Virus record (IMG/VR): IMGVR_UViG_3300027760_000001
DNA: 20,000 bases
DNA from: an uncultured virus (IMG/VR IMGVR_UViG_3300027760_000001)
Taxonomy: Duplodnaviria; Heunggongvirae; Uroviricota; Caudoviricetes
Reading direction: 5' to 3' (one strand)
Part shown: in pieces, positions 2 to 20,000 of the stretch
How positions within the stretch are numbered: position 1 is the stretch's first letter
Layout of the letters: every line of letters begins with the position of its first letter
The notes under the pieces: model-generated
What the model saw: the letters and a program-made list of their open reading frames with translations, nothing else
What the model was told of the DNA's origin: nothing
Databases searched by the model: none
Program-made: the position numbers and the translations under genes

Positions 2-1630
2 GCAGAGCAGTCCACGCGCAAAGGCTTCAAAGTATTGTTTGGTGGAGAAGGTGCCGCAGCAGAAGAAGTGGTGGGCATCGAGCAGGTGATTGAAGACTTG
101 TATATCCTTGAAAACCTTGGTTTGGCTTCTAAAAATGCAAGACTCTTTGGTGGTGCCGTTATTCTTCTTTACATTGATGATGGAAGGTCAGCAGATCAGC
201 CAGTTAATTATTCAAACATTCGTTCAGTTGAGGGAATGGAAGTATTAGATCGCTGGCAAATTGCGCCAGTAATCAATGAAGAAAGTCTTTATGACTATTC
301 CAAGGCAACTTACTATCAAATTATTAGTGGAGATTTAATCAGGCAGCCACAGTTAGCAAAAATTCATAAAGATAGGATTCTGCGTTTTGATGGAGAATGG
401 CTTCCTTATCGCATCAGGCAAAGGAACTATGGGTGGGGAATGAGTACGTTGCAAACTGTATATGACAGTTTCCGCTTTTATTCCAGCGGTATTAGCTCTG
501 CCGCAACGCTTCTAACTGAATTTGATATTTTTGTCCACAAAATTAGGGGCCTTGCCTCCATGCTTGCTGCTGGCAAAGAAGGAGATGTACGTAATCGCCT
601 GATTGTCAACGATATGAGCAAAAGTGTTTATCGAGGCTATGCCATTGACGCCGAAAAAGAAGAACTAGCTTTCATTAGCCGCAACTTTGGCGGCATTGGA
701 GAAATCTTGGAAAAGCTTCGCGTTGATATTATTGGTGCTTCCCAGATTCCCCATACGATTCTCTTCGGAGAAAGCCCTGGTGGACTTGGCTCGACTGGTC
801 GCAGTGAAGAGCGTGATTTTGCCAAGCACCTAGGAGATTACCAAGCATCACATTACAAGCGTCCGTTGCAGCAGCTCATGAAAATGATCATGCTCAGCAA
901 AAAGGGTCCGACCAATGGCAGTGTCCCTGAATCTTGGCGCATTAAGTTCAATGATTTGTTTGAGCTTAATGAAAGGGAAAAAGCTGACGTACGGGCGCGA
1001 GTGGCAGCCGTGGATGGGCGTTACGTGCAGCTCGGCATTCTCCACCCGAAGGAAGTAGCAGAAGCCCGCTATGGAGGCAGCGAGTGGTCAATGGAACTCA
1101 CTCTTGATCCATCGCTTCCCCGTGAACTGCCTGCGCAGAAAGGCCAGCAGAATGTTCCTCCTGGCGGCAGAGACCCCCTGAACCAAGAGAATGGTACGTT
1201 GCCCATGGATGGCAGCAGGCAAGTGCAAGATGAGGCTGGGCTTTACTTGCCCCAAGATCTTGAAGCCATCAAAGAAGACGCCACTTTTGTCGATAAAAGC
1301 CTTCATGAGCAGGCTATTGCGTCAGCAAAGACGAAGTTCAAAGTGTGGCCCAGTGCAGTTGCCGGTGCTTACGTGTCGCGTAAGTATCAAGAGCTATACA
1401 AGCGCAAGCATGGATCCCTAGAAGGAGCCTTTAAGGGGAAAAAAGAGCAAGCTGAGTATTTTAAGAAACAAGATGCGATTGATGCCGTAAAAATCGGAGG
1501 CCTACTGCTGGAAAAGGTGGACGAAACTGCCTTCATCTCAGACAATGACATTGAGCGGGCCATGAAGGAATGGAAGGAAGAAGCTCCTGCTCGTTTCAAG
1601 GACATCTTGGAAGCCGAAGATGCTGAATGA
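2..1630 (+). CDS. Phage portal protein (DUF1073/HI1409-like), 5'-truncated, with C-terminal extension
   Basis: Frame is open from base 2 (AEQSTRKGFKVLFGG...), so the start is upstream of the window; motifs ARLFGGAVI, IHKDRILRF, GWGMSTLQ, IPHTILFGESPGGL, F.DLFELNEREKA typical of DUF1073 portals. Confidence 0.9.
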   Translation, partial: AEQSTRKGFKVLFGGEGAAAEEVVGIEQVIEDLYILENLGLASKNARLFGGAVILLYIDDGRSADQPVNYSNIRSVEGMEVLDRWQIAPVINEESLYDYSKATYYQIISGDLIRQPQLAKIHKDRILRFDGEWLPYRIRQRNYGWGMSTLQTVYDSFRFYSSGISSAATLLTEFDIFVHKIRGLASMLAAGKEGDVRNRLIVNDMSKSVYRGYAIDAEKEELAFISRNFGGIGEILEKLRVDIIGASQIPHTILFGESPGGLGSTGRSEERDFAKHLGDYQASHYKRPLQQLMKMIMLSKKGPTNGSVPESWRIKFNDLFELNEREKADVRARVAAVDGRYVQLGILHPKEVAEARYGGSEWSMELTLDPSLPRELPAQKGQQNVPPGGRDPLNQENGTLPMDGSRQVQDEAGLYLPQDLEAIKEDATFVDKSLHEQAIASAKTKFKVWPSAVAGAYVSRKYQELYKRKHGSLEGAFKGKKEQAEYFKKQDAIDAVKIGGLLLEKVDETAFISDNDIERAMKEWKEEAPARFKDILEAEDAE

Positions 1631-2335: not shown

Positions 2336-3556
2336 GTGGCTCGGATTCTTTACTGCGGAGACTGTGGAGTACAAACTGGGTTTGGACGTGTTGCTGAGTA
2401 TTTGATTCCAGCACTGGCCCAGGAGCATGAAGTGCATGCTTTGGCAGTCAACTACCATGGCGACCCTAATGAAATGCAGAAGCATTGCTTCATGTATCCA
2501 GCGATGGTACATGGCAATGACCCCTTTGGCTCGCACCGCATTGGTGAACTCATTCAAACCATTAAGCCAGATTTGGTGTGGGTGACCAACGATCTATGGA
2601 TTGCTGCAAACCTATGGGAAGCAGTTAAGCCACTGTGGGAGAAGATGGACTTCAAATTCTTTGTTTACACTCCCATTGATAGTTATGGCATCTTCCCTGA
2701 AATGGCAACATCTGCCAATGAATGGGACGGCTTGGCCACCTATACAGAGTTTGGCAAAATCGAACTTGAGACAATGGGCTACAACAAGCCCATCCATGTG
2801 ATTCCCCATGGTACGGACTTTTCAAAGTTCTTTTCCATGGACAAAAAGCAATGCAGGCAAGAGCTTGGCATTCCAGAAGATGCCTTCATTGTTTTCAATG
2901 GCAACAGGAATCAACCACGTAAACGAATTGATTTGACAATCAAAGGCTTCATTAAGTTTGCAAAAGGCAAGCCTGATGCAAGGCTTTGGCTTAACATGGG
3001 CGCCAGGGACATGGGATGGGAGTTGATCCCCTTGTTCAATCGAGTGGCGCGTGATGAAGGCTATGATCCTCAAGGCAAACTAATCTTGACCAGTCCACAT
3101 TTCTCTACCAGCAACTGTCTTCCCATTGAAAAGCTCAATCAAGTGTATAACGCTGTAGATGTTGGCGTTAACACTTGTATTGGAGAAGGATGGGGCCTAG
3201 TAAATACAGAGCATGCCGCCACTGGAGTGGCTCAAGTTGTACCGAACCATACAAGCCTGAAGGAAATTTTCCATGGCATTCAACGTATTCAGTGCAATGC
3301 ATCAGAAACCGATAGGAACTATGGACTAGAGCGCATGCTGCCAGATCCAGATAGCCTTGCGGAAATCCTGAACAATTACTATTCCAATCACATGGCACTT
3401 AACGTTGCCAATAGCTGGTGTTACAAGCGAGTGCATGAAGAGCAGTTTACTTGGCCTAAGATCACCAAGAAAATGCTTGATATTGTTGGTTCTGTTTTAG
3501 AGCAAAGAAAGCAAACAGAATTCAAAGGCTTTGGCACTCCTGCTCGTATTGGTTGA
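2336..3556 (+). CDS. GT-B fold glycosyltransferase (GT4-like)
   Basis: TGFGRV N-terminal motif, NRNQPRKRID, EGWGLVNTE (EX7E) motif. Confidence 0.9.
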   Translation: MARILYCGDCGVQTGFGRVAEYLIPALAQEHEVHALAVNYHGDPNEMQKHCFMYPAMVHGNDPFGSHRIGELIQTIKPDLVWVTNDLWIAANLWEAVKPLWEKMDFKFFVYTPIDSYGIFPEMATSANEWDGLATYTEFGKIELETMGYNKPIHVIPHGTDFSKFFSMDKKQCRQELGIPEDAFIVFNGNRNQPRKRIDLTIKGFIKFAKGKPDARLWLNMGARDMGWELIPLFNRVARDEGYDPQGKLILTSPHFSTSNCLPIEKLNQVYNAVDVGVNTCIGEGWGLVNTEHAATGVAQVVPNHTSLKEIFHGIQRIQCNASETDRNYGLERMLPDPDSLAEILNNYYSNHMALNVANSWCYKRVHEEQFTWPKITKKMLDIVGSVLEQRKQTEFKGFGTPARIG

Positions 3557-3561
3557 TCATC

Positions 3562-4272
3562 ATGAACATCTCGCAGATTTTTCTTTCTGACACCGACAAG
3601 GAGCTTTCTCCTTTCCTAAAGTTTGCCACTGGAACCATTGACCAATGCTTCCCTGGCTGTGACCATACTATTTATAACAAAGAAACTCTTCGGCAGTTTA
3701 TTGATGAAAACTTCCATCAGTCAGTTGTAGATGCCTATGACTGCCTAAAGCCATATTCCTATAAGGCAGACTTGGGACGCTTTTGCTTGCTCTACAAGCT
3801 TGGCGGATGGTACATGGACATTGCAGTTCGCGCAGTAAATGGAGTGGAGATTGGCAATCAAATTGAATTCCTTGCCTTTAGGGATATTCAGCGATTCAGT
3901 TATACTTCTTGGGCTTGCGCTACAACTGTGCTCTATTCAAAGCCTGGCAATAATGCGCTGATGACTGCCATTGAAATGATTATTGATAATTGCGCTGAGA
4001 AGTATTATGGCATTACGCCATTGTGCCCCACCGGCCCAACTCTTCTTGGTGCTGCTTTGGCAGCAAATGGTGGCAATACCAATTTCGTTTATGGCGACTA
4101 CTTGGAGCTAACTCCTACACATGAAAACAAGAATCGTGCCTTTGTTCTGCCAGATGGCACAATCATGGCATGGAGCAAGCCCTCTGGAGGGGGTGATTTA
4201 ACTGGTGTTGGCGCTAAGGGCGTGAACAACTACAACGAACTGTGGGCAGCGAGGAACGTATATGCAGGCTAA
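3562..4272 (+). CDS. GT-A glycosyltransferase, GT32/Gly_transf_sug-like
   Basis: YKADLGRFCLLYKLGGWYMD and C-terminal PTGPTLL motifs; ATG at 3562 chosen over TTG at 3553. Confidence 0.8.
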   Translation: MNISQIFLSDTDKELSPFLKFATGTIDQCFPGCDHTIYNKETLRQFIDENFHQSVVDAYDCLKPYSYKADLGRFCLLYKLGGWYMDIAVRAVNGVEIGNQIEFLAFRDIQRFSYTSWACATTVLYSKPGNNALMTAIEMIIDNCAEKYYGITPLCPTGPTLLGAALAANGGNTNFVYGDYLELTPTHENKNRAFVLPDGTIMAWSKPSGGGDLTGVGAKGVNNYNELWAARNVYAG

Positions 4273-4975
4273 GGATCTCAGCATCTATGCAGTGGGAACG
4301 AAGGACCTTCCCATGCGCTATGAATCAGTGGCAACACTTAAGCAACTATGCGCCCATTCCTCGGCTTTGCTTTCAGAAGAAAGAGAAGCACTGAGAGCGC
4401 GGGGATGGTACTTTGATGACGAAGGAGACAACATCTCTGCTCTTAATCCATGGTGGGGCGAATTAACTGGAGTGTATTGGCTTTTACGTAATACCAATGA
4501 CCTTCTAGTGGGAAATGCTCAATATCGAAGATACTGGGTAAATGAAGGCATTGAGCATTCCAGCGAAAGTCAACTATATGTATCGGGCACTTGCCTGTTT
4601 AATTGCTCTTTGGCTGATCAGTTTAGAGGAGGTCATTCCTTCAGGGGAATTGAAATGACGATGGAGGCAGCAGAGCGCGGCAAGTTACCATTCACCGTTA
4701 ATGAGATGCGTTCTGTTTGGGAGCAAAATCACTTCTTTGGTGGTCCTATGGCGAGAGGACCTCGCAAGGATTATACGGCCTTGATGACGGTGCTTTTTGA
4801 TTGCTTGTGGCCCATCTGGGAGGACAATAAAGACGAAATTAAGGCACTTTCTGGCTATGATCAACGCGCTATGGCTTTCCTAAGCGAACGACTACTTGCA
4901 GGCGTTGTCTTGCTTCGTGAGAAGTTCTTTGGAAACATGTCTATCCTTTGCGCTCCGATGAGCTTCATTCCATGA
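4262..4975 (+). CDS. DUF4422-like putative glycosyltransferase
   Basis: GDNISALNPWWGELTGVYW, VGNAQYRRY and RAMAFLSERL motifs resemble DUF4422 proteins. Confidence 0.75.
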   Translation: MQAKDLSIYAVGTKDLPMRYESVATLKQLCAHSSALLSEEREALRARGWYFDDEGDNISALNPWWGELTGVYWLLRNTNDLLVGNAQYRRYWVNEGIEHSSESQLYVSGTCLFNCSLADQFRGGHSFRGIEMTMEAAERGKLPFTVNEMRSVWEQNHFFGGPMARGPRKDYTALMTVLFDCLWPIWEDNKDEIKALSGYDQRAMAFLSERLLAGVVLLREKFFGNMSILCAPMSFIP

Positions 4976-6114
4976 CTCGCACTATTCTCGATCTTGGCCA
5001 ACAGCCCCTTGTCAATAATCTTTGCCAAGACGAAGCGTCCTCCCTTGCAGCCGAACAGTTTCCTCTCAAGGCGATTCTGGAAGATGATCTAACCATCCAT
5101 TTGGACTATGCAGTCGATCCGTCTGTCTTATATGGCAACTATTTGTATCATTCCTCGACAAGCAAGCCATATCTTGAGCATTGCAAGCAAATGTTTAGGA
5201 GCTTTTGTTTTCTAAGGCATGATGTGGTTATAGATATTGGCGGCAATGATGGATCTTTGCTGAAGCAAATTAAAGAGAATAGCAAGCAAAAGCCAGTCTT
5301 AATTAACGTAGATGCAAGTCCCACCTTCAAGGAGGAAAACGAGAAGGAAGGCATTATTTTTGTCAATGATTTCTGGGGAGACCATCTATCCCTGCCAAAG
5401 GCAAATATAATCACTTCAACTAATGTTTTTCAGCATACAAAAGACATTCATGCTTTCATGCGTGGCATCGAAAGATTCCTGGATGGAGTGTGGATCCTGG
5501 AATTTCCCTACGCAGCGGAAACCATTCGGACTGATCAATTTGACCAGTTTTACCATGAGCATTATTACTACTGGCTGCTAACTCCTCTTGAAGCACTGTT
5601 TAAGCAATATGGGCTAAGGATTATTCATCATGAAATGCAAGACATTCATGGTGGCACAATGCGGCTATGGATGACAAATAGAGAAGTTGGAGCGCCAACT
5701 TGTGACCTATCTTCTTATAAAGATAAAGAAAAAGAACTAATGTATGATGCCATTTTAGGCTTAAATATTAGAAGCCTTAAGCGGCAGTTTGCTTCAATGT
5801 CAGAAAACGTTGAATCATTCGGGAAGATCGCCTTCTTTGGAGCTGCCGCGAAGGGATGCGTCTTCCTGAACGCTCTAGGAATCAACTCAGCCAACAATGG
5901 GCCTTCTTTCGTGATTGACGACACGAAGAGCAAGCAAGGGCTGTACGTACCTGGTACGGGCTTTCCAGTGGTAGATCGCAGCCATCTTTCGCAGTGCAAT
6001 ACCATCATCATCCTTGCCCATAACTTTGCAGATCACATTGCAAAATCATTGCGACAAGACGGCTTCAATGGTCGAATTGTCGCTATGCTTCCTTGGTATC
6101 GGGAGTTTGATTGA
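4972..6114 (+). CDS. NDP-sugar C-methyltransferase-like protein (TcaB9/NovU/TylCIII-type)
   Basis: LDLGQQPLVN, DIGGNDG (SAM-binding), TNVFQH, FYHEHYYY, IHGGTMR, FGAAAKG, ILAHNF motifs; ATG at 4972 overlaps the previous stop (ATGA). Confidence 0.85.
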   Translation: MTRTILDLGQQPLVNNLCQDEASSLAAEQFPLKAILEDDLTIHLDYAVDPSVLYGNYLYHSSTSKPYLEHCKQMFRSFCFLRHDVVIDIGGNDGSLLKQIKENSKQKPVLINVDASPTFKEENEKEGIIFVNDFWGDHLSLPKANIITSTNVFQHTKDIHAFMRGIERFLDGVWILEFPYAAETIRTDQFDQFYHEHYYYWLLTPLEALFKQYGLRIIHHEMQDIHGGTMRLWMTNREVGAPTCDLSSYKDKEKELMYDAILGLNIRSLKRQFASMSENVESFGKIAFFGAAAKGCVFLNALGINSANNGPSFVIDDTKSKQGLYVPGTGFPVVDRSHLSQCNTIIILAHNFADHIAKSLRQDGFNGRIVAMLPWYREFD

Positions 6115-6719
6115 TGCAACTATCTACAGAAGCGCCTGGCATTGATGCCATTCTTAACGCGCAAAGCATCAATGGGTTTGAATGGCCAGGTGGCACCGAC
6201 AAGCAAACTCTCCATTCGTATGGGCCTGTCTACGAAAAACTGCTTTCCCCATTGAAGGACAAGAAAGCAACCATCCTTGAAGTGGGAGTGCAGCTAGGTG
6301 GATCGCTCCTGCTTTGGCACGACTTCCTGCCTCAAAGCGTCGTGATTGGCGTTGATAATAAGAATACCATTGACCCTAGCATCATGCCCCGCATGGATCC
6401 ATTGCGCTGTGCAGTGCTGTTCATGGATGCCTATGCCAACGACACTGTTTCAAAAGTACAGCAGTTGGCAATCAATGGAATTGATTTTGCTATTGATGAT
6501 GGCCCGCATTCGCTAGAAAGCCAAAAACGCTTCTTGGAGCTGTACTTGCCATTGCTCAATGAAGGCGGCATTGCCGTGATTGAAGACATCCAAGACTACG
6601 GATGGTTTGAAGAGTTAATTCCATTGGTCAGTGATCAGTATGTCTATGAAATAGTTGATTTACGTGGCGTGAAGGGAAGGTATGATGACTTGATGCTTGT
6701 TGTCAAAAAAATAAGATGA
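6114..6719 (+). CDS. Class I SAM-dependent methyltransferase (sugar O-methyltransferase-like)
   Basis: GTDK..HSY..VYE, LEVGVQLGGS, IDDGPH, GGIAVIEDI motifs; TGATG overlap with upstream stop. Confidence 0.85.
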   Translation: MQLSTEAPGIDAILNAQSINGFEWPGGTDKQTLHSYGPVYEKLLSPLKDKKATILEVGVQLGGSLLLWHDFLPQSVVIGVDNKNTIDPSIMPRMDPLRCAVLFMDAYANDTVSKVQQLAINGIDFAIDDGPHSLESQKRFLELYLPLLNEGGIAVIEDIQDYGWFEELIPLVSDQYVYEIVDLRGVKGRYDDLMLVVKKIR

Positions 6720-7432
6720 GCTTGCGCCCATTGTTTATTGTTTACCATTTGTTTCAAGCGGAACGATGGGAGCAAATATATTGCGAACAGATGGGCGCGA
6801 TGATGCTTAGCGGATTGCTTGATCACGCACATTTAACCATTGGAATCAATGGTGATCAAGGCATTGATGCTCCTAGCAATTGCAAGATAATCCGCCATTG
6901 TGATGGTTTCTCTGAAAAGCCTTCATTGTTACTGGCTCGTCAAATTGCAGAAGAATATCCAACTGCCTCAATCCTGTATTTGCACAGTAAAGGCATTTCT
7001 CATGCCACTAGAAATCAAGATGATTGGAGAATGATGATGCAGCACTTCCTAATTGTCAATTGGGAAAAAGCTGTTGATCTTCTTGATGATTATGATGTGG
7101 TATCAGTGAATTGGCGTACTTTCCCAGTTGCTCATCCATCGGGGAATTATTGGTGGACAAGGGCTTCTCATTTGCTGAATTTAGATCCAGCTTATTTGGA
7201 CTCGACAGATAGATGGAGGCAAGAATTCTGGATGGGCTCTGTTCCATGTAAAGTGGCAAATATGCACGAAACAGAATTGGATCATTACAACGAAGAGTGT
7301 CCTTCTTCTAAATATTGTCAATCATATTTTTGTCGTTATCGAGGAGGCTCACTGCGTCTTAGCTTTTCCTCAAGAGCCAAAGCAATAGAAGAAGGGCGAC
7401 TGTCTCCAGTGGCTAAGATAGACTTTTTCTAG
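6716..7432 (+). CDS. Hypothetical protein, possible divergent glycosyltransferase
   Basis: ILYLHSKG, WRMMMQHF, GNYWWT, QEFWMG motifs resemble uncharacterised GT-like proteins in viral glycosylation clusters; ATGA-coupled to the methyltransferase. Confidence 0.5.
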   Translation: MSLRPLFIVYHLFQAERWEQIYCEQMGAMMLSGLLDHAHLTIGINGDQGIDAPSNCKIIRHCDGFSEKPSLLLARQIAEEYPTASILYLHSKGISHATRNQDDWRMMMQHFLIVNWEKAVDLLDDYDVVSVNWRTFPVAHPSGNYWWTRASHLLNLDPAYLDSTDRWRQEFWMGSVPCKVANMHETELDHYNEECPSSKYCQSYFCRYRGGSLRLSFSSRAKAIEEGRLSPVAKIDFF

Positions 7433-7460
7433 GAAAAAACTGAAATTATGGTCAATAATC

Positions 7461-8003
7461 TCACTCATTGTCAGAGTAATTTTTATCACTCCACAAAGAA
7501 AGCTCTTTTTTCTGATGCTCAGAATTGCTGAGAATTTCTAAATTGTCAATATGGTTGTTCAAGCAATTGCCGTCAATATGATGAACGTGTTCCCATTTTT
7601 CAAGCTTGCGTTTTAAGTGTTGCTCCATTATCCATCGATGTTCCCTAACTTGCTCTCCGTCGACCATAATGGTGGCGTACTGACGAGCTGGCTGATTCTT
7701 TTGCCTTAAAGATTCTGATCTGCGCATTAGTGGCGAATTTCTTCTTGCTTTTTCTCCTATTTCAGGATGATTCAATGCCAAGCACCTGCGAGAGCAGTAT
7801 TTCGCTGTATTGGATCTATATGCTGGAACATAGAAAATAACACCACAATGCAAACAGCTACAGGTAGCGCCTTTTTTCTTTCTGTCTGGAATTTTGCCCG
7901 ATCTTTTTAAGTGACCAGTCTGGCAACTGCGACAGCAATAAACATTTGTCTTCCTCCTGGGGGCAAAAAGCTTGCTACAGTTAAGACATGGCCGGGTATC
8001 CAT
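7461..8003 (-). CDS. Free-standing HNH endonuclease with two N-terminal Cys-rich zinc-binding repeats
   Basis: EHRWIME...HVHHIDGNCLNNHIDNL HNH motif; CLNC...YCCRSC and CLHC...YCSRRC repeats; antisense to flanking genes; ATG at 8003 (TTG at 8009 is an alternative). Confidence 0.88.
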   Translation of the reverse strand: MDTRPCLNCSKLFAPRRKTNVYCCRSCQTGHLKRSGKIPDRKKKGATCSCLHCGVIFYVPAYRSNTAKYCSRRCLALNHPEIGEKARRNSPLMRRSESLRQKNQPARQYATIMVDGEQVREHRWIMEQHLKRKLEKWEHVHHIDGNCLNNHIDNLEILSNSEHQKKELSLWSDKNYSDNE

Positions 8004-8046
8004 GGTCAAAAGATCAACTTCCCATTACTATAGCACTTTCCGAGTC

Positions 8047-8316
8047 ATGGCCACTGAGATCCTAAAAAAAAAGCAAGCAAAAATAGCTCGCGTAATGAGA
8101 GAGTTCAAGGCTGGCACCTTAAAGGGCAGCGGTGGAGATAAAATTACCGATCGTCGCCGTGCAATTGCAATTGCTCTGTCGGAAGCTGGCATGACCATGA
8201 AGGGTAAGAGCGATGCTTATATTGATGCCTATGTAGACACTATGATGTGCATGGAAATGGAAGAACCAGAAGAAGAAACCATGCAACAAGGCATGGATGG
8301 CCAGGGAAAGTCCTGA
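8047..8316 (+). CDS. DUF6496-like small basic protein with acidic tail (89 aa, unshifted product)
   Basis: KIARVMREFKAGTLKGSGG.KITDRRRAIAIALSEAG matches the DUF6496-type pattern; ATG at 8047 lies outside the HNH gene. Confidence 0.75.
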   Translation: MATEILKKKQAKIARVMREFKAGTLKGSGGDKITDRRRAIAIALSEAGMTMKGKSDAYIDAYVDTMMCMEMEEPEEETMQQGMDGQGKS

Positions 8317-8341
8317 GGGGAGATGCCGAGTCATTCTCCCC
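8304..8341 (+). promoter_or_regulatory. Putative programmed -1 ribosomal frameshift signal (G GGA AAG + 6-nt spacer + hairpin)
   Basis: In-phase X XXY YYZ heptamer at 8304-8310, one sense codon (TCC) before the stop; hairpin GGGGAGATG/CAT-TCTCCCC at 8317-8341; -1 frame open to 8663. Confidence 0.8.
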
Positions 8342-8663
8342 ACCATCGTCTGTAAGGGCCGCAGCGCGTCGCGGGCTAGAACTACGCGAGAAGTATGGCA
8401 AAGGCGGCTTGACGACGCAGGAAGCGGGCAAACAGGGCATTGGAAGCGGAGTGGCGAGGGCCGCAAGTCTTGCCAATGGTGAAAAACTGAGCTACGAAAC
8501 CATCAAGCGCATGGCAGCTTTCTTTTCTCGTCATGAGAAAAATAAGACTGGTGGTGAGAATGACGCTGGCTACATCGCCTGGAAATTATGGGGAGGAGAT
8601 TCTGGCAGGGCTTGGGCGAATCGGATCATTAAGATGGTTGAAACTCGCAACCAAAACCAGTGA
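8310..8663 (+). CDS. Conserved phage head-associated domain, probably expressed as the -1 frameshift extension of 8047
   Basis: FSPPSSVRAAARRGLELR...GVARA..LANG..LSYETIKRMAAFFSRH...GYIAWKLWGGDSGRAWA; no start codon between 8304 and the domain; the 8247-8303 N-terminus in the ORF track looks like off-frame translation. Confidence 0.75.
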   Translation, partial: VLRGDAESFSPPSSVRAAARRGLELREKYGKGGLTTQEAGKQGIGSGVARAASLANGEKLSYETIKRMAAFFSRHEKNKTGGENDAGYIAWKLWGGDSGRAWANRIIKMVETRNQNQ

Positions 8664-8965
8664 GCGAATACGTGCAGGTGGTCGAAGAGGAAGAGGACGG
8701 CATTGGCATCATGAAGGCCCTGGCTGTTCTTTCTTCAAATGAGCACAGGGATACTTGTCATTGGCGGCTGATAGAAGAGCAGCATTTCAAAAATGGAAGG
8801 CTTGATGAAACTCATATTTTTGTAACAAACCACTACGAAAAGCCGCATGAAATTTTTGCTCCCATTAAGCTCCTAGTCTTTGAAGCAGAAGCGCTTGCCA
8901 ATGCTTACATCATGGAAAACATTGAGAACCAGTTGGCAGAGATTCGCGGAGAAAATGATGACTAA
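8660..8965 (+). CDS. Hypothetical acidic protein
   Basis: 101-aa ORF; GTG start overlaps the TGA of the upstream ORF (GTGA). Confidence 0.7.
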   Translation: MSEYVQVVEEEEDGIGIMKALAVLSSNEHRDTCHWRLIEEQHFKNGRLDETHIFVTNHYEKPHEIFAPIKLLVFEAEALANAYIMENIENQLAEIRGENDD

Positions 8966-9258
8966 TCTTCTACTGCGGATGCCACAAATGTTGGATAACC
9001 CAGCAAGTACAAGATAGAAAGCTGAAAAAGAGAACTAAGTACACGAATTTGTCCACAGTCAGGCGATATTTGCCCACGCTCCATTCTCGATATTGTTGTT
9101 TGATCGCAGTGGATGGTTTTTGCGATATCCGACTGCGACAATCCACAGTTTAAGCGAGCTTGCCTGAGTCTGTCGCCAATAATTTTCCTGCTTTCTTGAA
9201 TGGTGACAATGGGGGCGTTAAGCTTCTTGGTGATCCGTCGTTGTTGAGTGTGCTGCAT
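8962..9258 (-). CDS. XRE/Cro-C1 family helix-turn-helix regulator
   Basis: IGDRLRQARLNCGLSQSDIAKTIHCDQTTISRMERG HTH; ATG at 9258 avoids overlap with DUF2213. Confidence 0.88.
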   Translation of the reverse strand: MQHTQQRRITKKLNAPIVTIQESRKIIGDRLRQARLNCGLSQSDIAKTIHCDQTTISRMERGQISPDCGQIRVLSSLFQLSILYLLGYPTFVASAVED

Positions 9259-9319
9259 TTTTAGGCAGTATATCCTAAATACCATTATTCTACACAATAA
9301 TTTCAGATAAAGTAGAGGC
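9259..9319. promoter_or_regulatory. Divergent promoter region with two palindromes (candidate operators)
   Basis: TTTAGG-N8-CCTAAA (9260-9279), ATTATT-N6-AATAAT (9284-9301); -10-like TAGAAT on minus (9292-9287) and TAAAGT on plus (9308-9313). Confidence 0.5.
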
Positions 9320-10507
9320 ATGAGCGACACATGCTTTCGCTACGACGTAGCTCCCATTGACAAGTACGAAGTAACCCCAGAAGGTTACCTTCGCGCTTGG
9401 GCGACCATTGCCCGCACTGGCGTACAACAGTACACCGATGCTGATGGTTCCATTCGCCGGGAGTATCGTCCTGAAAGTGAAGTGGCGTCTCCTTCAAGCT
9501 TGGCCTCGTTTGCGGGCAAAGCAATCACCCTTGAGCATCCTCCAGTCCTTCTAGATAGCGCCAATACAAAGGACTATCAAGTTGGATTTAGTGGCACTGA
9601 AGTGGTTTATGACGACGGCTTTGTTCGTGCAGTCATGACTATCACTGATGAAGAAGCCATTAAGCGCATCATGCGTGGAGATGCAAAAGAAGTCAGCGCT
9701 GGTTATCGCGTTAACTATGAGGCAACTCCTGGTGTAACTGATAGCGGTGAGAATTACGATGGCATCCAAAAGGAAATCAGCGGAAATCACATTGCTGTTG
9801 TTCGTAGAGGCCGTGCTGGCCCGCAGGTCAAGCTTCATCTAGATCGTCTGGATGCCGCTGATCCTTCTCTAATTTCTCCTATTGAGGAACCATCTATGAC
9901 TGCAAAAGTCAATTTTGATGGCGCCGAGTTTGAGGTGACCGAGAGCGTAGCTCTGGCGATCACCAAAGAACGGGAAGACGCCAAGATGTCCTTTGAGGAC
10001 ATGAAGAAGAAATATGACGAGCTTAAGGCTGCGTCTGATTCTATGAAGTCCGAAATGGATGCCATGGAAAAGAAAATGAAAGGCCAATGCGATTCTGCTG
10101 AAGGTCGTGCCGATGCTCTTTCTGAAGAACTGAACAGCCTCAAGGCCGACCTTGAAGTTGCTCAGCAAGTGAATGTTGACAGCCTTGTTGAAGAGCGCGT
10201 TGCGTTGATCGACAAAGCTCGCACTTCTCTTGATTCTGCCTTTGATTTCTCTGGCAAAACTGCCCGTGAGATCATGGAAGCTTCTGTGAAGGCTGTTCGT
10301 GGTGATGTTGATCTTTCGGAGCGTTCCGACGATTACATCACTGCCATGTTCGACACTCTGGCTGATGTTTCCCGTAGCGATTCAACCACTGATGAGCTGC
10401 GTAAGGCTGTTGCCTCCATCAATTCCCCATCGTCTGCTCCTTCGTCCTACATGGACAAGTTGCAAAACGCTTGGAAATCCCCCCTCTCCGTTTCTAAGGA
10501 GCGCTGA
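9320..10507 (+). CDS. DUF2213 protein: prohead protease domain fused to coiled-coil scaffold
   Basis: TPEGYL, IARTGVQQY, ITLEHP, EVSAGY, NHIAVVRRGRAG motifs; acidic coiled-coil C-terminal half; located upstream of decoration and capsid genes. Confidence 0.9.
   Translation: MSDTCFRYDVAPIDKYEVTPEGYLRAWATIARTGVQQYTDADGSIRREYRPESEVASPSSLASFAGKAITLEHPPVLLDSANTKDYQVGFSGTEVVYDDGFVRAVMTITDEEAIKRIMRGDAKEVSAGYRVNYEATPGVTDSGENYDGIQKEISGNHIAVVRRGRAGPQVKLHLDRLDAADPSLISPIEEPSMTAKVNFDGAEFEVTESVALAITKEREDAKMSFEDMKKKYDELKAASDSMKSEMDAMEKKMKGQCDSAEGRADALSEELNSLKADLEVAQQVNVDSLVEERVALIDKARTSLDSAFDFSGKTAREIMEASVKAVRGDVDLSERSDDYITAMFDTLADVSRSDSTTDELRKAVASINSPSSAPSSYMDKLQNAWKSPLSVSKER
9896..10507 (+). CDS. Probable nested in-frame scaffolding protein (203 aa)
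   Basis: TGAGGA SD (9883-9888) 7 nt before an in-frame ATG at 9896, at the protease/coiled-coil boundary. Confidence 0.6.
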   Translation: MTAKVNFDGAEFEVTESVALAITKEREDAKMSFEDMKKKYDELKAASDSMKSEMDAMEKKMKGQCDSAEGRADALSEELNSLKADLEVAQQVNVDSLVEERVALIDKARTSLDSAFDFSGKTAREIMEASVKAVRGDVDLSERSDDYITAMFDTLADVSRSDSTTDELRKAVASINSPSSAPSSYMDKLQNAWKSPLSVSKER

Positions 10508-10510
10508 CCC

Positions 10511-11071
10511 ATGGCTGTAACTTTTACTACGTCGGGGACTGCTTCCGTTGGTGGTGTGCAACAGAGCTACGCTCTGACTCATACCGCTATTCAGGAAGGT
10601 CAACTTTCCGATATTCGCGACAATACGGTTAATACTTGCATCAATGAGACTGCCGTTGTGCAGCCCTTCGGCGATTTGCAAGTGTATAACCTGGCTGGCA
10701 CCGTTGCAAACTCTGCTACCACCATTTCTGGCGCCACTGGCACGGTCCTTGGCGTTAATATTCTCACCTATGTTGACGAAACTGCTCGCAATAGCGACGG
10801 TCGTCCTGGTGTGAAAGTTGCCCAAGCAATGAACGTTGCTAGCGAAGGCGCAGTTGCCGTCTATGTGACTGGCGCTGTCAACCCTGCCTCGACTGTCCGT
10901 GTGCTGTATTCGGCTAGTGGCACTGGCAAGGCTGGTCAATTCAGCCACGCTTTTGCTTCGGGCAAGACCGTTCGCCTTTCCAATGCTCGCTTCCTCACCA
11001 CTACTACTACTAGCGGTGTTGCGATTCTGGAACTGAACGGCCCGAGTTTCACTCTCTCTGCTGATTCTTGA
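10511..11071 (+). CDS. Head decoration/cement protein
   Basis: Between scaffold and capsid genes; T/S/G/A-rich beta-type sequence; AAGGAG SD at 10496-10501. Confidence 0.75.
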   Translation: MAVTFTTSGTASVGGVQQSYALTHTAIQEGQLSDIRDNTVNTCINETAVVQPFGDLQVYNLAGTVANSATTISGATGTVLGVNILTYVDETARNSDGRPGVKVAQAMNVASEGAVAVYVTGAVNPASTVRVLYSASGTGKAGQFSHAFASGKTVRLSNARFLTTTTTSGVAILELNGPSFTLSADS

Positions 11072-11085
11072 TAGGAGGCCCTCTA

Positions 11086-12000
11086 ATGTCTGATTTCCGC
11101 ATGGATGACGCTGGGCTTTTCCTGCAGCGTCAGCTTGAGTACATTCGTCCCCAAGTATTTGAGATCACTTACGCTGACATCAAATACCCCGCCATCCTGC
11201 CTGTTACCAGCGAAGCTGGCCCTGGCGCACAAACCTTCACCTACCGCATCCTGGACTCCACTGGTGAGTTCAAGCTGATTGCGGACGCTGCTGCTGATCT
11301 GCCCCGTGCCGACATCAGCCAAGTGGAGAAGAGCATCAACATTCGTTCTTTTGGCGGCAGCTTCGGCTACACCGTTCAAGAGCTTCGTGCTGCACAAATG
11401 GCCAATGTTGCTCTTGAGCAACGTCGTGCTGCTGCTGTTCGTCGCGCTTACGAAGAGAAAGTTGAAAGCGTTGCAATGTTCGGTGAATCCACCGTCAACC
11501 TTGCTGGCTTCTTCAACAACTCGACTGTTGACATCATTGCGGCTGATAAGTGGTTCACCACTGCTGCTGTGACTGCTCAGGAAATGATTGAACTGCTGAA
11601 CTATGGCGTTAGCGCCATCATCAATGGCTCAAACATGAAGGAGCAGCCCGACACGATCCTGCTGGCCTACGAGGATTACAACAAAGTCAGCACCACTCGC
11701 TTCTCCGATTCTTCGGACGTGACCGTGCTGGAATACTTCCTCCGCACCAACCCCTACATCCGTAACGTTGAGCCCATCAACCAACTGACCAAGGGTAAGA
11801 ACGGTGGCAAGCTGAACACCAGCCGGATGGTTGTTTACAAGCGCGATCCTGAGAAAGTGCAACTGCACATCCCTCAGCCGCTTGAGTTGTTCCCGCCCCA
11901 ACAGCGTGGTCTTGAGTTCATTGTCCCTGCTCACGCTCGCGTGGGTGGTGTGGCTCTGTACTATCCCAAGAGCATGATCTACGTTCAAGCTTCGTCTTGA
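11086..12000 (+). CDS. Major capsid protein (DUF2184-like, HK97 fold)
   Basis: AGGAGG SD (11073-11078) before ATG at 11086; FLQRQLEYI, DLPRAD, YTVQELRAA, GGVALYYP motifs. Confidence 0.92.
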   Translation: MSDFRMDDAGLFLQRQLEYIRPQVFEITYADIKYPAILPVTSEAGPGAQTFTYRILDSTGEFKLIADAAADLPRADISQVEKSINIRSFGGSFGYTVQELRAAQMANVALEQRRAAAVRRAYEEKVESVAMFGESTVNLAGFFNNSTVDIIAADKWFTTAAVTAQEMIELLNYGVSAIINGSNMKEQPDTILLAYEDYNKVSTTRFSDSSDVTVLEYFLRTNPYIRNVEPINQLTKGKNGGKLNTSRMVVYKRDPEKVQLHIPQPLELFPPQQRGLEFIVPAHARVGGVALYYPKSMIYVQASS

Positions 12001-14688: not shown

Positions 14689-14917
14689 TTATTTGAAAAG
14701 CCGCGATGGGCTCGTGCATGCCATTAACTGCCGAAAAAATGGGTTATCGCTGGAAGTCGGCATATTATGTCTTATTTCTTTCCGGGAAGAAAGCACTAGA
14801 ATCTCAAGCGAACATCAATCCTTTGTGGTTGAAGTGCCAAAAGAGTTTCGCTCCGGCAGCGAAAAAGTCAAGGTCTTCAACGCAATTCTGAACATTCTCT
14901 CCAATGAGCAAGTATAG
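14678..14917 (+). CDS. Hypothetical protein
   Basis: 79-aa ORF overlapping both neighbours and filling the gap in the operon. Confidence 0.6.
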   Translation: MQFNYLKSRDGLVHAINCRKNGLSLEVGILCLISFREESTRISSEHQSFVVEVPKEFRSGSEKVKVFNAILNILSNEQV

Positions 14918-15446
14918 CTTTCTTCTTCAAGGGCAAGAGCCTGAATATTTTGAACTACTTCCTACTCTGCGGTTGCAAAAATATGGTGGATGGCTGGTTG
15001 CAGAAGCCATTGAACAAGAAGAGGCCGGAAAGGCTCAGAGTCAAGCAACGATTCGTGCCGTTCAACTGGCAAAGCGTATTGCTAGCTCAAAGAACATCAC
15101 TCTCGATGAAGCTTTTGAAGTGCTTCAAAGCGGCTCCGGCTTAACTGAAATTGAACTGCTGGATGAGTTCACGGAAGAAACACTGGCAATGATTAGCAGC
15201 GGCGGTGGAGTGGAAATCGGCAATGCTCGTATGGCGACTACTTTCATTCGTTGCCGTGGTGAAGCATTGATTGATGGAAGCTGGAAGCGAGTGGATGATT
15301 GGTCAATGGATGACACTAAAGCCATGGGACGGCAATTGATTACTAAAACCATGGAATTTGTTTCCGAAGAACAGCAAGCGGAGGTGGAAGAGTCCATGGC
15401 AAAAAAATCGAAGACGACGAAAGCCTCTGTTACGCCGAAAAGCTAG
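14904..15446 (+). CDS. Tail assembly chaperone (gpG equivalent)
   Basis: Acidic 180-aa protein upstream of tape measure gene with slippery site near its 3' end. Confidence 0.8.
   Translation: MSKYSFLLQGQEPEYFELLPTLRLQKYGGWLVAEAIEQEEAGKAQSQATIRAVQLAKRIASSKNITLDEAFEVLQSGSGLTEIELLDEFTEETLAMISSGGGVEIGNARMATTFIRCRGEALIDGSWKRVDDWSMDDTKAMGRQLITKTMEFVSEEQQAEVEESMAKKSKTTKASVTPKS
15401..15407 (+). promoter_or_regulatory. -1 frameshift slippery heptamer A AAA AAA
   Basis: GCA AAA AAA TCG in the chaperone frame; -1 frame open from here to TAG at 15872-15874. Confidence 0.8.
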
Positions 15447-18900: not shown

Positions 18901-20000
18901 AAAGAGCTGGTGTCAAAACCGGTCGGATGGTGATGGGATCACCCGCTGTGCCTGGATCTTTGCCAGACATAGCAGGATATGGACAAAAATCTGTAGATGT
19001 CACACAAATACAAGGCGCCATATTAGCGCGTCAGCAAATTGCAGCAACTGCTGCTAGGCAAATTACTGATTTACAGTTTCAAGAAAAGCAGGCGCAAAGT
19101 CCAGCCAATCTTTCTCCGATCTCACCATCAGCAGAAAAAACAAAGAAAGAAAGTCTTGAAAGTTATTACAGCTTTGCAGACCAACTTTCAAAGGCTCAAA
19201 TGCAAACTGATATTGAACGAATCCAGAGCGGCTTTGACCATAGATTTAAGCTTCTTAATTCCTATTACGATCTGCAAGAAGCCCGCGCTAATAGCTTCCA
19301 GAAGATTACTATTTCTTTTCAAAAAGAACTTCTCGCCATTGAACAAGAGAGACAGCAGGCTTCTATTAGCGCTCAGGCAGCAGTAATGAAAGCGCAAAGT
19401 AGTGTTGCCGGAGGAGTTGCTTCGACTGCCATGGTTGGTGGTGGAATGACGCCTGTAGTTGCAGGAAGTGGCACTGGCTTTAGTAGCGCGCAATTGCAAA
19501 GAGCAACAAGTGCAGCAGCTAAGTTTAACGGGATTGCCAATATGTGTAGCGAATCTGTCAAGACTTTTTATAAGAGCCTTGGCATTACATTGCCTGGGGT
19601 GACAGCATGGGCAGATACGGTCAGAATGGCTGGCAAAACAATGACAGACTGGAGCAAATTAAAAGCAGGCGATATTGTTGCGACTGGTCGTCCAGGTGAC
19701 ACCCCTCACGTTGGTGTTTATACCGGCGGAGAAAATGTATTTCACCAAAGTAGCAGGAGAGGCTTGAGGGCTGGAAATTATCCAGATTTGAATTATTTTA
19801 AGCAAGGTGGGTATTTTGTTAGGCCAAACGCTACCGGAGGCGCGGGCGCTCCTCGCAAAGTGCCAAGCAGTGAAAAAAGAGATTTAATGGCACAACAAGA
19901 AGCAAGTAATGCCTTAATTGATCAAGGAACGATTGAGCTTCGCGCACAAGAAATCGCGGCTAAAAAAACAGAAATTGCATTCCTAAATTATGTTGCGGCC
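15912..20000 (+). CDS. Tape measure protein (>1363 aa, 3'-truncated) with Rho-N-like and NlpC/P60 domains
   Basis: ATG at 15912 (MAAPELRLSVGLD...), open to the window end; tape-measure motif AFAQMASKGQVMSEELKGQLGDVLPGA near 17844-17924; hydrophobic segments near 18420-18700; NlpC/P60 Cys-His-His near 19545-19745. Confidence 0.93.
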   Translation, partial: MAAPELRLSVGLDLEFFRGQMRKAVNIAQSEFTAQLAVRIDRNKLNTELNNLQKAIKRRTYRIEIGGNLDAAPSKINALRQALQALEGTKAEIGVGGIASINTKEARKIRTALRASMLGAGGKILIPTSIVPSITNADVTAFKKAVEGKLSGIKVNVGIKGGDPSGTSTGAAGLYEYMRGQGMSGGNMPGATSVGRSERLRKALEKQTVKQLNELAKGQGLSGYTKLKKDPLINKLIAELGNDAAEALLGNIKMQMRGAGSSPIKRSFLDQIARAVFFMAGVDPSQLRAQQQRALSKRRRLPNIDWSSSVPPRQGPSIGPSSTGRALPPAWRGLPGTSFSSQKLLLGDLLTPSMKGSIRDAANAFVDGIRQNMNATIRQIKFADLGGVTRRALSPQHIAGLLPAGVGREAQRYATGAIGGESRDQMMARRTAEAYARSAFRSMDVMGGGTGRPASPYSYAYRGARPQGAIVPYAAPGAIVPAGTTAQAAPTGSRGGGMAMGGTAGGLSIPNLPGTGIVQSLGTEFAFAAKQVLLFGTAYKALSFLTGFPQQVGDAVGALQSFRNTLKAISPSAGEAAASSQFILDVVQKYNVPLQSARDGFTKLYASMQPAGFSGNEIRDLFLSISQAAATFGMSADKVDRVNYAFAQMASKGQVMSEELKGQLGDVLPGAMAIFAEAAGFKGPEAITKFSKALEDGAYKGVAMKTLLTNVSMIMKQEFGPGAEGAARTFQGSMNRMQNSLKLLYEAFEPVAVGFLNSVVMPMTDGIKTISDGFTAFFSGVAAKTSGGFAIAQELEKLKPAFDGIRANVAALAPTLQGLANVLLGVSKAFLQIAGNPFVGYVARVYLNVLLLTTAIQVLNLRALVPLIASFARSAYALIAFNIQCVRAGQGAAIAGLQFRTAGLTLRTFFATTGVGLVLVGIGLLIERFLSMNQALADTKEKALGAASAIRNMSQTEARQAENQAAMDVKTLQALQARPNQGKGDIAISSKEEDALKRAGVKTGRMVMGSPAVPGSLPDIAGYGQKSVDVTQIQGAILARQQIAATAARQITDLQFQEKQAQSPANLSPISPSAEKTKKESLESYYSFADQLSKAQMQTDIERIQSGFDHRFKLLNSYYDLQEARANSFQKITISFQKELLAIEQERQQASISAQAAVMKAQSSVAGGVASTAMVGGGMTPVVAGSGTGFSSAQLQRATSAAAKFNGIANMCSESVKTFYKSLGITLPGVTAWADTVRMAGKTMTDWSKLKAGDIVATGRPGDTPHVGVYTGGENVFHQSSRRGLRAGNYPDLNYFKQGGYFVRPNATGGAGAPRKVPSSEKRDLMAQQEASNALIDQGTIELRAQEIAAKKTEIAFLNYVAA

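Follow-up and report, generated by a model that had tools for sequence, protein, structure and literature searches.

The window analyzed here is a stretch of 20,000 nucleotides (nt) from the uncultured virus record IMGVR_UViG_3300027760_000001 of IMG/VR. It corresponds to the structural region, from head to tail, of a contig of siphovirus type with 40,096 bases in all, from a lake cyanophage-like virus. The segment 8047–8663 is very probably a gene expressed by programmed −1 ribosomal frameshifting, with one product of 89 amino acids (aa) and another of 205 aa, as judged from the sequence and its relatives. The comparison of related loci shows that selection maintains the slippery heptamer, the relative placing of both frames and the hairpin stem; we infer that slippage occurs, as well as its efficiency and its function. 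The parts of the cassette, all on the plus strand, are the following:

8047–8316, plus strand: zero-frame open reading frame (ORF) of 89 aa, with a DUF6496-like core, a short helix and an acidic tail, the predicted short product (translation, Pfam match)
8304–8310, plus strand: slippery heptamer G GGA AAG (sequence, phase count, alignment column)
8311–8316, plus strand: 6-nt spacer formed by the sense codon TCC and the stop TGA at 8314–8316
8317–8341, plus strand: hairpin with the stem GGGGAGA/TCTCCCC, a candidate frameshift stimulator (fold, comparison)
8310–8663, plus strand: −1 frame extension, 117 codons and a stop, coding for a conserved all-helical domain, here called X

According to the proposed mechanism, a ribosome translating the DUF6496-like ORF would arrive at G GGA AAG, its P site occupied by tRNA-Gly and its A site by tRNA-Lys, and would pause there under the influence of the hairpin 6 nt downstream and possibly also of the stop located one codon further on. 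A fraction of the ribosomes would re-pair one base back, on GGG AAA, and would read the −1 frame from 8310. One message would give in this manner two products, one of 89 aa ending at the TGA 8314–8316 and another of 205 aa that includes the 117-residue helical domain X.

The cassette in the window

The ATG at 8047 opens an ORF of 89 codons, the 3′ end of which reads CAG GGA AAG TCC TGA. The relatives start their DUF6496 ORF at the equivalent ATG. The heptamer begins at a third codon position, as (8304 − 8047) mod 3 equals 2, and this is the phase of the X XXY YYZ pattern. From 8310 the −1 frame runs for 117 codons up to a TGA at 8661–8663, and the long product consists of residues 1–88 of the zero frame followed by these 117 residues (88 + 117 = 205). 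An earlier reading of the window, made from its letters and referred to below as the sequence-only reading, had placed the ORF, the in-phase heptamer, the spacer, the hairpin and the −1 frame at these same positions and had proposed products of 89 and about 205 aa; both the sequence and the translations agree with it. When the plus-strand ORFs of the window (n = 20) were considered together, the −1 frame ran past the end of the gene for three of their nine in-phase heptamers, namely those at 8304, 12425 and 15401.

Near its 5′ end, the DUF6496 ORF contains a run of nine A's (8064–8072, coding for Lys-Lys-Lys) that includes in-phase A AAA AAA and A AAA AAG. From there the −1 frame stops after about 22 codons, and in most relatives the Lys codons are interrupted at that place. 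Some abortive slippage could occur on this run.

Frame arrangement and heptamer in related loci

Domain X was used to scan IMG/VR, which gave 370 relatives, the best 80 of which were compared. The comparison set (n = 84) was formed by the window, three annotated phage loci, among them that of Synechococcus phage S-CBS4, and these best 80 IMG/VR loci (the window plus L001–L083). Both protein parts were located by tblastn and their frames were then compared. The −1 arrangement was present in 66/84 loci, including the window, S-CBS4 and L004, a locus identical to the window at the cassette. In every one of the 66 an in-phase X XXA AAG occupied the same alignment column, in three versions: A AAA AAG (43 loci), G GGA AAG (17 loci) and C CCA AAG (6 loci). 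The zero-frame residue encoded at the heptamer is variable (K, G or P), and the three identical bases change together, something that is predicted by selection on slipperiness but not by selection on the protein. In a tree of 60 distinct domain sequences the heptamer labels need 13 changes, and when only the well-supported branches are considered, a minimum of 4, 5 and 2 changes is still required for the three heptamer types. So, the heptamer was exchanged repeatedly, each time for one that is also slippery; recombination among modules could increase the count of label changes, but every outcome is still a slippery heptamer.

The surroundings of the heptamer are equally regular. The peptide of the −1 frame is conserved from the first codons after it (x-L-RGDAESF), and in 64/66 loci a single codon separates the heptamer from the zero-frame stop. 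Natural in-frame fusions of both parts were found in 14/84 loci, with no heptamer at that place, and in a protein of 191 aa, P0002, which is an in-frame DUF6496 + X. Both a conserved in-phase heptamer and in-frame fused homologues had been named by the sequence-only reading as signs to be sought in related phages. Three of the 84 loci show no upstream part: those of Limnohabitans phage DC31 and a Vibrio phage, in which X has its own ATG, and one cut-off contig.

Some individual loci depart from the common pattern. In L050 (1489–1540), CGA replaces the TGA and the zero frame is 14 codons longer, and in L016 (1495–1504) a TAG lies directly 3′ of the heptamer. Compared to the near-identical L038, one G is missing in L075 (1480–1515) just before the A run; this difference is read as a recent mutation or a sequencing error; if it were a natural variant, its two parts could be joined only by slippage of +1 (or −2) at the A run. 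In L012 (56–1501) and L022 (860–1501), the DUF6496 frame is open far upstream, with 482 and 214 codons, respectively, from the first ATG, and spans a Cys-rich domain that is a separate gene elsewhere. These two loci may represent a longer natural fusion, or only an open frame.

The hairpin and other possible stimulators

The stem is formed by GGGGAGA (8317–8323) paired to TCTCCCC (8335–8341), with 7 base pairs (bp) and a loop of 11 nt, and it starts 6 nt after the heptamer. In the centroid fold, inner TG/CA pairs are added and the loop is then of 6 nt. The evaluated stem energy was −12.9 kcal/mol for the cassette of L004. Considering the 45 distinct 46-nt cassettes, the 7-bp stem was paired in 98.7% of cells, compared to 93.8 ± 0.9 in shuffles (0/500 as high), a control that ignores the relatedness among the sequences. 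When the partner strand was slid by 1–3 columns, pairing fell to 69–84%, and RNAalifold gave the same stem. The pair 18–34 was AU in 28 cassettes, CG in 10, a wobble in 3 and a CU mismatch in 4, and in 12/45 cassettes one pair was changed on both sides. The covarying pair joins the third position of a Gly codon to the first position of a Ser or Ala codon. The compensatory stem change that the sequence-only reading had suggested looking for was thus present, and the covariation can be considered a real but modest support for the predicted hairpin. The mean local minimum free energy was −14.9 kcal/mol for 40 distinct −1 cassettes versus −7.1 kcal/mol for 6 distinct in-frame ones that code for nearly the same peptide. 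L010 is an in-frame locus that keeps the stem.

The stop one codon 3′ of the heptamer is possibly another stimulator of the shift. An upstream stimulator of the dnaX type, similar to a Shine–Dalgarno (SD) sequence and expected about 10 nt 5′ of the heptamer, was also considered as a candidate and dropped, since it is absent from the window and from S-CBS4 and variable in spacing among the relatives: no such element was found in S-CBS4, and 32/47 distinct relatives display an anti-SD duplex of −6 or below at spacings of 5 to 24 nt.

Contrary observations and alternative explanations

In addition to the relatedness mentioned above, several observations weigh against a frameshift stimulated by this hairpin, or against its generality. 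Taken alone, the hairpin region of the window (57 nt, −17.5 kcal/mol) folds no better than its shuffles (z = −0.02), so the significance of the hairpin rests on comparison; the stimulator claimed by the sequence-only reading is present and its stem is conserved, but it is thermodynamically unexceptional within the window. Only one stem pair covaries and four pairs never vary, and, since the sequences are related and the region is coding, part of the stem pairing is explained in that way. No strong SD-like element was found upstream of the heptamer in the window, where the best anti-SD duplex is of −4.9 kcal/mol at 3 nt. In the −1 frame of the window, the one codon ahead of the domain that might serve as a start is the GTG at 8247, not conserved, from which a protein of 138 aa could in principle be initiated. 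A single locus, L075, shows a +1 relation between both frames. Finally, the best 80 of the 370 loci, with X 82–100% identical, represent one phage lineage, and more distant X homologues (L002, L003; L086–L089) have their own ATG, which indicates that the frameshift would be a trait of the S-CBS4-like lineage and not of X generally. Among the proteins that begin inside the domain, no frameshift-appended X was found outside that lineage: P0031 gave 2 irrelevant loci, and each of the four P0073 relatives has an ATG of its own with GGAG before it.

The alternatives to frameshifting (independent initiation, termination-reinitiation, transcriptional slippage and artefact) are, even when taken together, unlikely. 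If the segment contained two separate genes, X would be translated alone from the GTG at 8247 or from a start inside the domain, and the heptamer would be incidental. Distant X homologues with their own ATG fit this idea, as does the record of S-CBS4 (NC_016766), which is the closest and only cultured relative found, with the gene order shared and X 78% identical, and which keeps gp018 and gp019 as two separate hypothetical proteins. However, the S-CBS4 cassette consists of A AAA AAG, one codon, TAA and the stem GGGGCGA/TCGCCCC, and the annotated GTG start of gp019 lies 13 codons inside the conserved region, cutting off 13 conserved residues. Moreover, when the downstream frame is followed from its upstream stop to the conserved RGD, 45/66 of the −1 loci contain neither ATG nor GTG nor TTG, in agreement with the earlier claim that the downstream domain lacks a start of its own; the remaining 21/66 have only GTG or TTG, at non-conserved positions, and the next start falls inside the conserved domain (residues 15–68). 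In several loci that upstream stop is separated by only two to five codons from the point where reading in the −1 frame would begin. The persistence of the slippery pattern through three nucleotide versions and the 14 in-frame fusions also argue against two genes, and we consider this explanation very improbable. Termination-reinitiation, in which ribosomes finishing at TGA 8314–8316 would restart in the −1 frame at a non-canonical codon and give two unfused proteins, has in its favor a geometry known from coupled genes, with the zero-frame stop of 64/66 loci falling within the opening codons of the conserved −1 frame, and the next gene downstream is coupled in this manner (GTGA, 8660–8663). 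But there is no conserved start-like codon at or after the stop, where the −1-frame codon is CTG or CTA followed by AGG, and reinitiation leaves unexplained both the strictly conserved in-phase X XXA AAG and the in-frame fusions, so it can be held as quite improbable.

Slippage of the RNA polymerase on a run of A's could alter part of the transcripts, the fusion being then made by standard translation. The six A's present in the heptamer of 43/66 loci are compatible with it, as is the difference of one base just before the A run between the near-identical L075 and L038. Nevertheless, the heptamer of the window, like that of 22 further loci, is GGGAAAG or CCCAAAG and contains only three A's, and runs that short are not known to support such slippage (established knowledge; Atkins et al. 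2016, PMC5009743). As 23/66 loci have only three A's, transcriptional slippage cannot be the general mechanism; besides, the conserved feature is the phase-specific X XXY YYZ, which is relevant to ribosomes and not to the polymerase. This explanation seems highly improbable. The probability that the frame break results from an indel introduced in sequencing or assembly, or marks a decaying pseudogene, is in our opinion almost negligible. A single contig cannot exclude an indel, and L075 shows that 1-nt differences do occur here, but the arrangement recurs across 66 loci, which come from many data sets of different number and show 45 distinct cassettes, and X is 82–100% conserved as a protein. 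Two freshwater metagenome runs contain the stretch, no RNA run being among those listed for it, and two Logan assemblies, with word depths of 275 and 28, match the window at 7900–8800 with 0 differing letters and 0 indels. These assemblies may be the source sample, and the recurrence in 45 distinct cassettes is thus the stronger argument; two other runs (X3, X4) yielded only short diverged pieces and were uninformative. An assembly error, which the sequence-only reading had named as what could undo its proposal, is unlikely to be the cause of the frame break.

The two protein parts

The upstream protein had been called DUF6496-like from its sequence, and the Pfam search bears this out: DUF6496 (PF20106) matches residues 7–47 with an E value of 8.7e-8 and 32.9 bits, versus a gathering cut-off of 24. 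In the frameshifting loci, the short form consists of the DUF6496 core, a helix and a Glu-rich acidic tail that ends in the Lys-rich residues encoded by the heptamer.

The proposal that the −1 frame encodes a conserved domain was borne out. Domain X matches phrog_2859 (PHROGs, unknown function) with E 1.2e-17 and has 3873 homologous cluster representatives at E ≤ 1e-3 in a library of 1.84 billion proteins clustered at 50% identity. No Pfam family matches X even at E 10, and NCBIfam gives only chance-level matches. As a weak lead to a name, DUF6321 (PF19846) matches 1/52 aligned homologues (E 0.0042); its Atlas feature score is 0.86. The 52 X homologues share 17 invariant columns, including a Gly-rich G-x-G-S-G loop and an R-H pair. 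The model of X is made of seven helices, with a predicted local distance difference test (pLDDT) score of 90.9. No solved relative of X was found, as the best E of Foldseek versus PDB was 0.94 and the best Z of VIA-align wide was 4.7, both at chance level for helical models, and no PDB match was found for the fused model. The fold predicted for the in-frame fusion P0002 contains two confident domains (pLDDT 89.1, predicted TM-score 0.63). Its confidence dips to 67 at residues 71–80, the inter-domain linker that holds the in-frame junction, and this linker is at the place of the shift site in the gene of the window.

The proteins that contain X in other phages have from 115 to 1588 residues, and the place of X within them varies. 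A scan of 47 X representatives gave a 2H/LigT phosphoesterase in 9, InPase in 3, an XkdF-type protease in 3 and no family in 22, with LPD29, an HK97-type capsid domain, topoisomerase IB and ChaB appearing in single representatives. BFVD contains 58 matches to X at E ≤ 0.001, some of them named portal, prohead protease or Mu gp29. In annotated phage records, archaeal tailed viruses included, X occurs under features named portal, major capsid, prohead protease or head morphogenesis.

Genomic setting

The putative frameshift gene is placed between the portal gene and the DUF2213 protease/scaffold gene, in the following order:

2–1630, plus strand: portal gene, Phage_portal_3
2336–7432, plus strand: island of six glycosyl-/methyltransferase genes
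7461–8009, minus strand: HNH endonuclease
8047–8663, plus strand: putative frameshift gene (DUF6496-like + X)
8660–8965, plus strand: ORF of 101 codons
8962–9330, minus strand: helix-turn-helix (HTH, Cro/CI-type) repressor-like gene
9320–10507, plus strand: DUF2213 head maturation protease (protease/scaffold); the head module also has a cement protein gene
11068–12000, plus strand: major capsid protein, with the tail genes after it
from 15912 (to the window end at 20000), plus strand: tape measure gene

The opposite-strand HNH and HTH genes flank the putative frameshift gene together with the next ORF, an arrangement present also in S-CBS4. The start GTG of that ORF (8660–8965) overlaps the stop of the −1 frame (GTGA, 8660–8663), the usual coupling arrangement. 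Its product is 58–83% conserved in all the relatives where it is visible and has no family in any library searched. The island 2336–7432, between the portal and the head genes, contains GT4-type and DXD glycosyltransferases, DUF4422, a C-methyltransferase, a CmcI-like methyltransferase and one gene without assignment; it looks like a sugar-modification island within the structural module, and S-CBS4 carries a shorter version at the equivalent position.

In the tail region, the ORF 14904–15446 has an in-phase A AAA AAA at 15401, and its −1 frame has no stop for 155 codons, up to 15874, a short distance 5′ of the tape measure gene. The segment 14904–15874 is thus probably the tail assembly chaperone frameshift of the G/GT type of this window, and presumably the other frameshift implied by the sequence-only reading when it called the one at 8047–8663 the second. 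The tape measure protein has a Rho_N-like motif at about residues 204–237 and an NlpC/P60 peptidase domain at about residues 1212–1287. No Rfam family was found in 7900–8800 (E up to 1), no promoter-like or terminator-like site on the plus strand of 7400–9400, and no tRNA gene in the window.

Possible role and significance

The sequence-only reading had described domain X as head-associated. The gene position and the fusions in other phages point in that direction without demonstrating it: since the genes of the portal and of the DUF2213 protease/scaffold lie on either side of this one, and X is fused elsewhere to portals, prohead proteases and enzymes of polyvalent proteins, we infer, with much less certainty than for the recoding itself, that the long form is a minor head-associated protein, probably head-internal. 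It is likewise much less certain than the recoding that the rate of frameshifting sets the copy number of the long form relative to the short one. A more speculative idea, doubtful at present, is that the frameshift acts as a dosing device for head-internal cargo, the short DUF6496 form being an abundant carrier and the shift rate fixing how many copies of X enter the capsid. If this were so, the short form would be a carrier associated to the head or the scaffold; X would be a module from the world of polyvalent proteins, either enzymatic or ligand-binding, delivered with the virion and acting perhaps on nucleotides or phosphates like its companion 2H and InPase domains; and recoding would be a general phage strategy for fixing the stoichiometry of the effectors that are packaged.

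The mechanism proposed is a textbook one. What would be new is the gene family, together with its natural set of heptamer variants and in-frame fusions. The sequence-only reading knew of no described case in this gene type, and the literature searched is consistent with that, as no description of a frameshift in the DUF6496 + X family was found in it, most subscription journals being outside that search, nor any paper on DUF6496. Judging by title and start of abstract, no paper found on S-CBS4 and frameshifting concerns this gene. One article that mentions S-CBS4 (PMC6157547) has no occurrence of "frameshift", another on a cyanophage ribosomal frameshift (PMC12846349) concerns the tail chaperone, and the word is absent (0 occurrences) from the text of Iyer et al. 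2017 (PMC5512222).

The first consequence would be a correction of annotations, as in S-CBS4 and at least 64 IMG/VR contigs two "hypothetical proteins" would be one recoded gene. To our knowledge, few −1 frameshift sites have been characterized in cyanobacteria, and this family could be a convenient system for measuring −1 frameshifting in them, as it offers natural controls in similar genes: three interchangeable heptamers, in-frame fusions and one +1 variant. The gene would also add to the phage frameshifts a well-supported case that belongs neither to the tail chaperone nor to the major capsid protein, in a family that the literature searched does not link to recoding. Finally, it draws notice to X, a domain that is widespread, confidently folded and without a solved relative, and that is recurrently joined to portals, prohead proteases and anti-defence-type enzymes.

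Comparison with known systems

Escherichia coli dnaX, which gives tau and gamma, has a shift site of the same X XXA AAG class, and the commonest heptamer among the relatives of the window gene, A AAA AAG, is that of dnaX itself. In both genes a stem-loop occurs about 6 nt downstream, and the two products share, or would share, their N-terminus. On the other hand, a conserved upstream SD-like element is a feature of dnaX only, the shift ends the protein in dnaX while it would add a whole domain in the DUF6496-X gene, and the gene families are unrelated. dnaX is named in the abstracts of PMC6787027 and PMC6771820.

With lambda G/GT, the window gene has in common the predicted production of a short form and a C-terminally extended long form from a phage morphogenesis gene, and presumably also a fixed ratio of both forms. 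The heptamer of lambda G/GT is G GGA AAG, identical to that of the window. The differences are that the DUF6496-X gene belongs to the head module, not to the place between tail tube and tape measure, and that DUF6496 shows no similarity to the chaperone family; the A AAA AAA at 15401 is the G/GT-type site that the window has elsewhere. The tail assembly chaperone frameshift of lambda is due to Xu, Hendrix and Duda (2004), as cited in the PRFect article (PMC10885494). Precedents in head genes are T7 gene 10A/10B and the major head protein of Lactobacillus phage A2 (references listed in PMC10885494 and PMC5009743). In these two cases it is the major capsid protein that is extended, whereas the carrier in the window is a small DUF6496-like protein and, unlike in T7 and A2, the part added is an independent domain that occurs elsewhere free or fused to other proteins.

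The spacing of heptamer, one codon and stop found in 64/66 loci resembles that of pea enation mosaic virus (PEMV), where, according to Atkins et al. 2016 (PMC5009743), efficient shifting depends on the stop located one codon 3′ of the heptamer; however, PEMV is a eukaryotic RNA virus with a different heptamer. Concerning the extension, the polyvalent proteins of phages have been argued to be packaged in the head (Iyer et al. 2017, PMC5512222), and X, like them, occurs with InPase, 2H phosphoesterase, LPD29, portal and prohead protease domains. The protein of the window differs from polyvalent proteins in having only two small domains, and X is without a Pfam family. The orthologous locus is that of S-CBS4 gp018/gp019, with the same cassette and the same neighbors (glycosyl-/methyltransferases, HNH, repressor and protease), where what would be a single recoded gene is annotated as two proteins.

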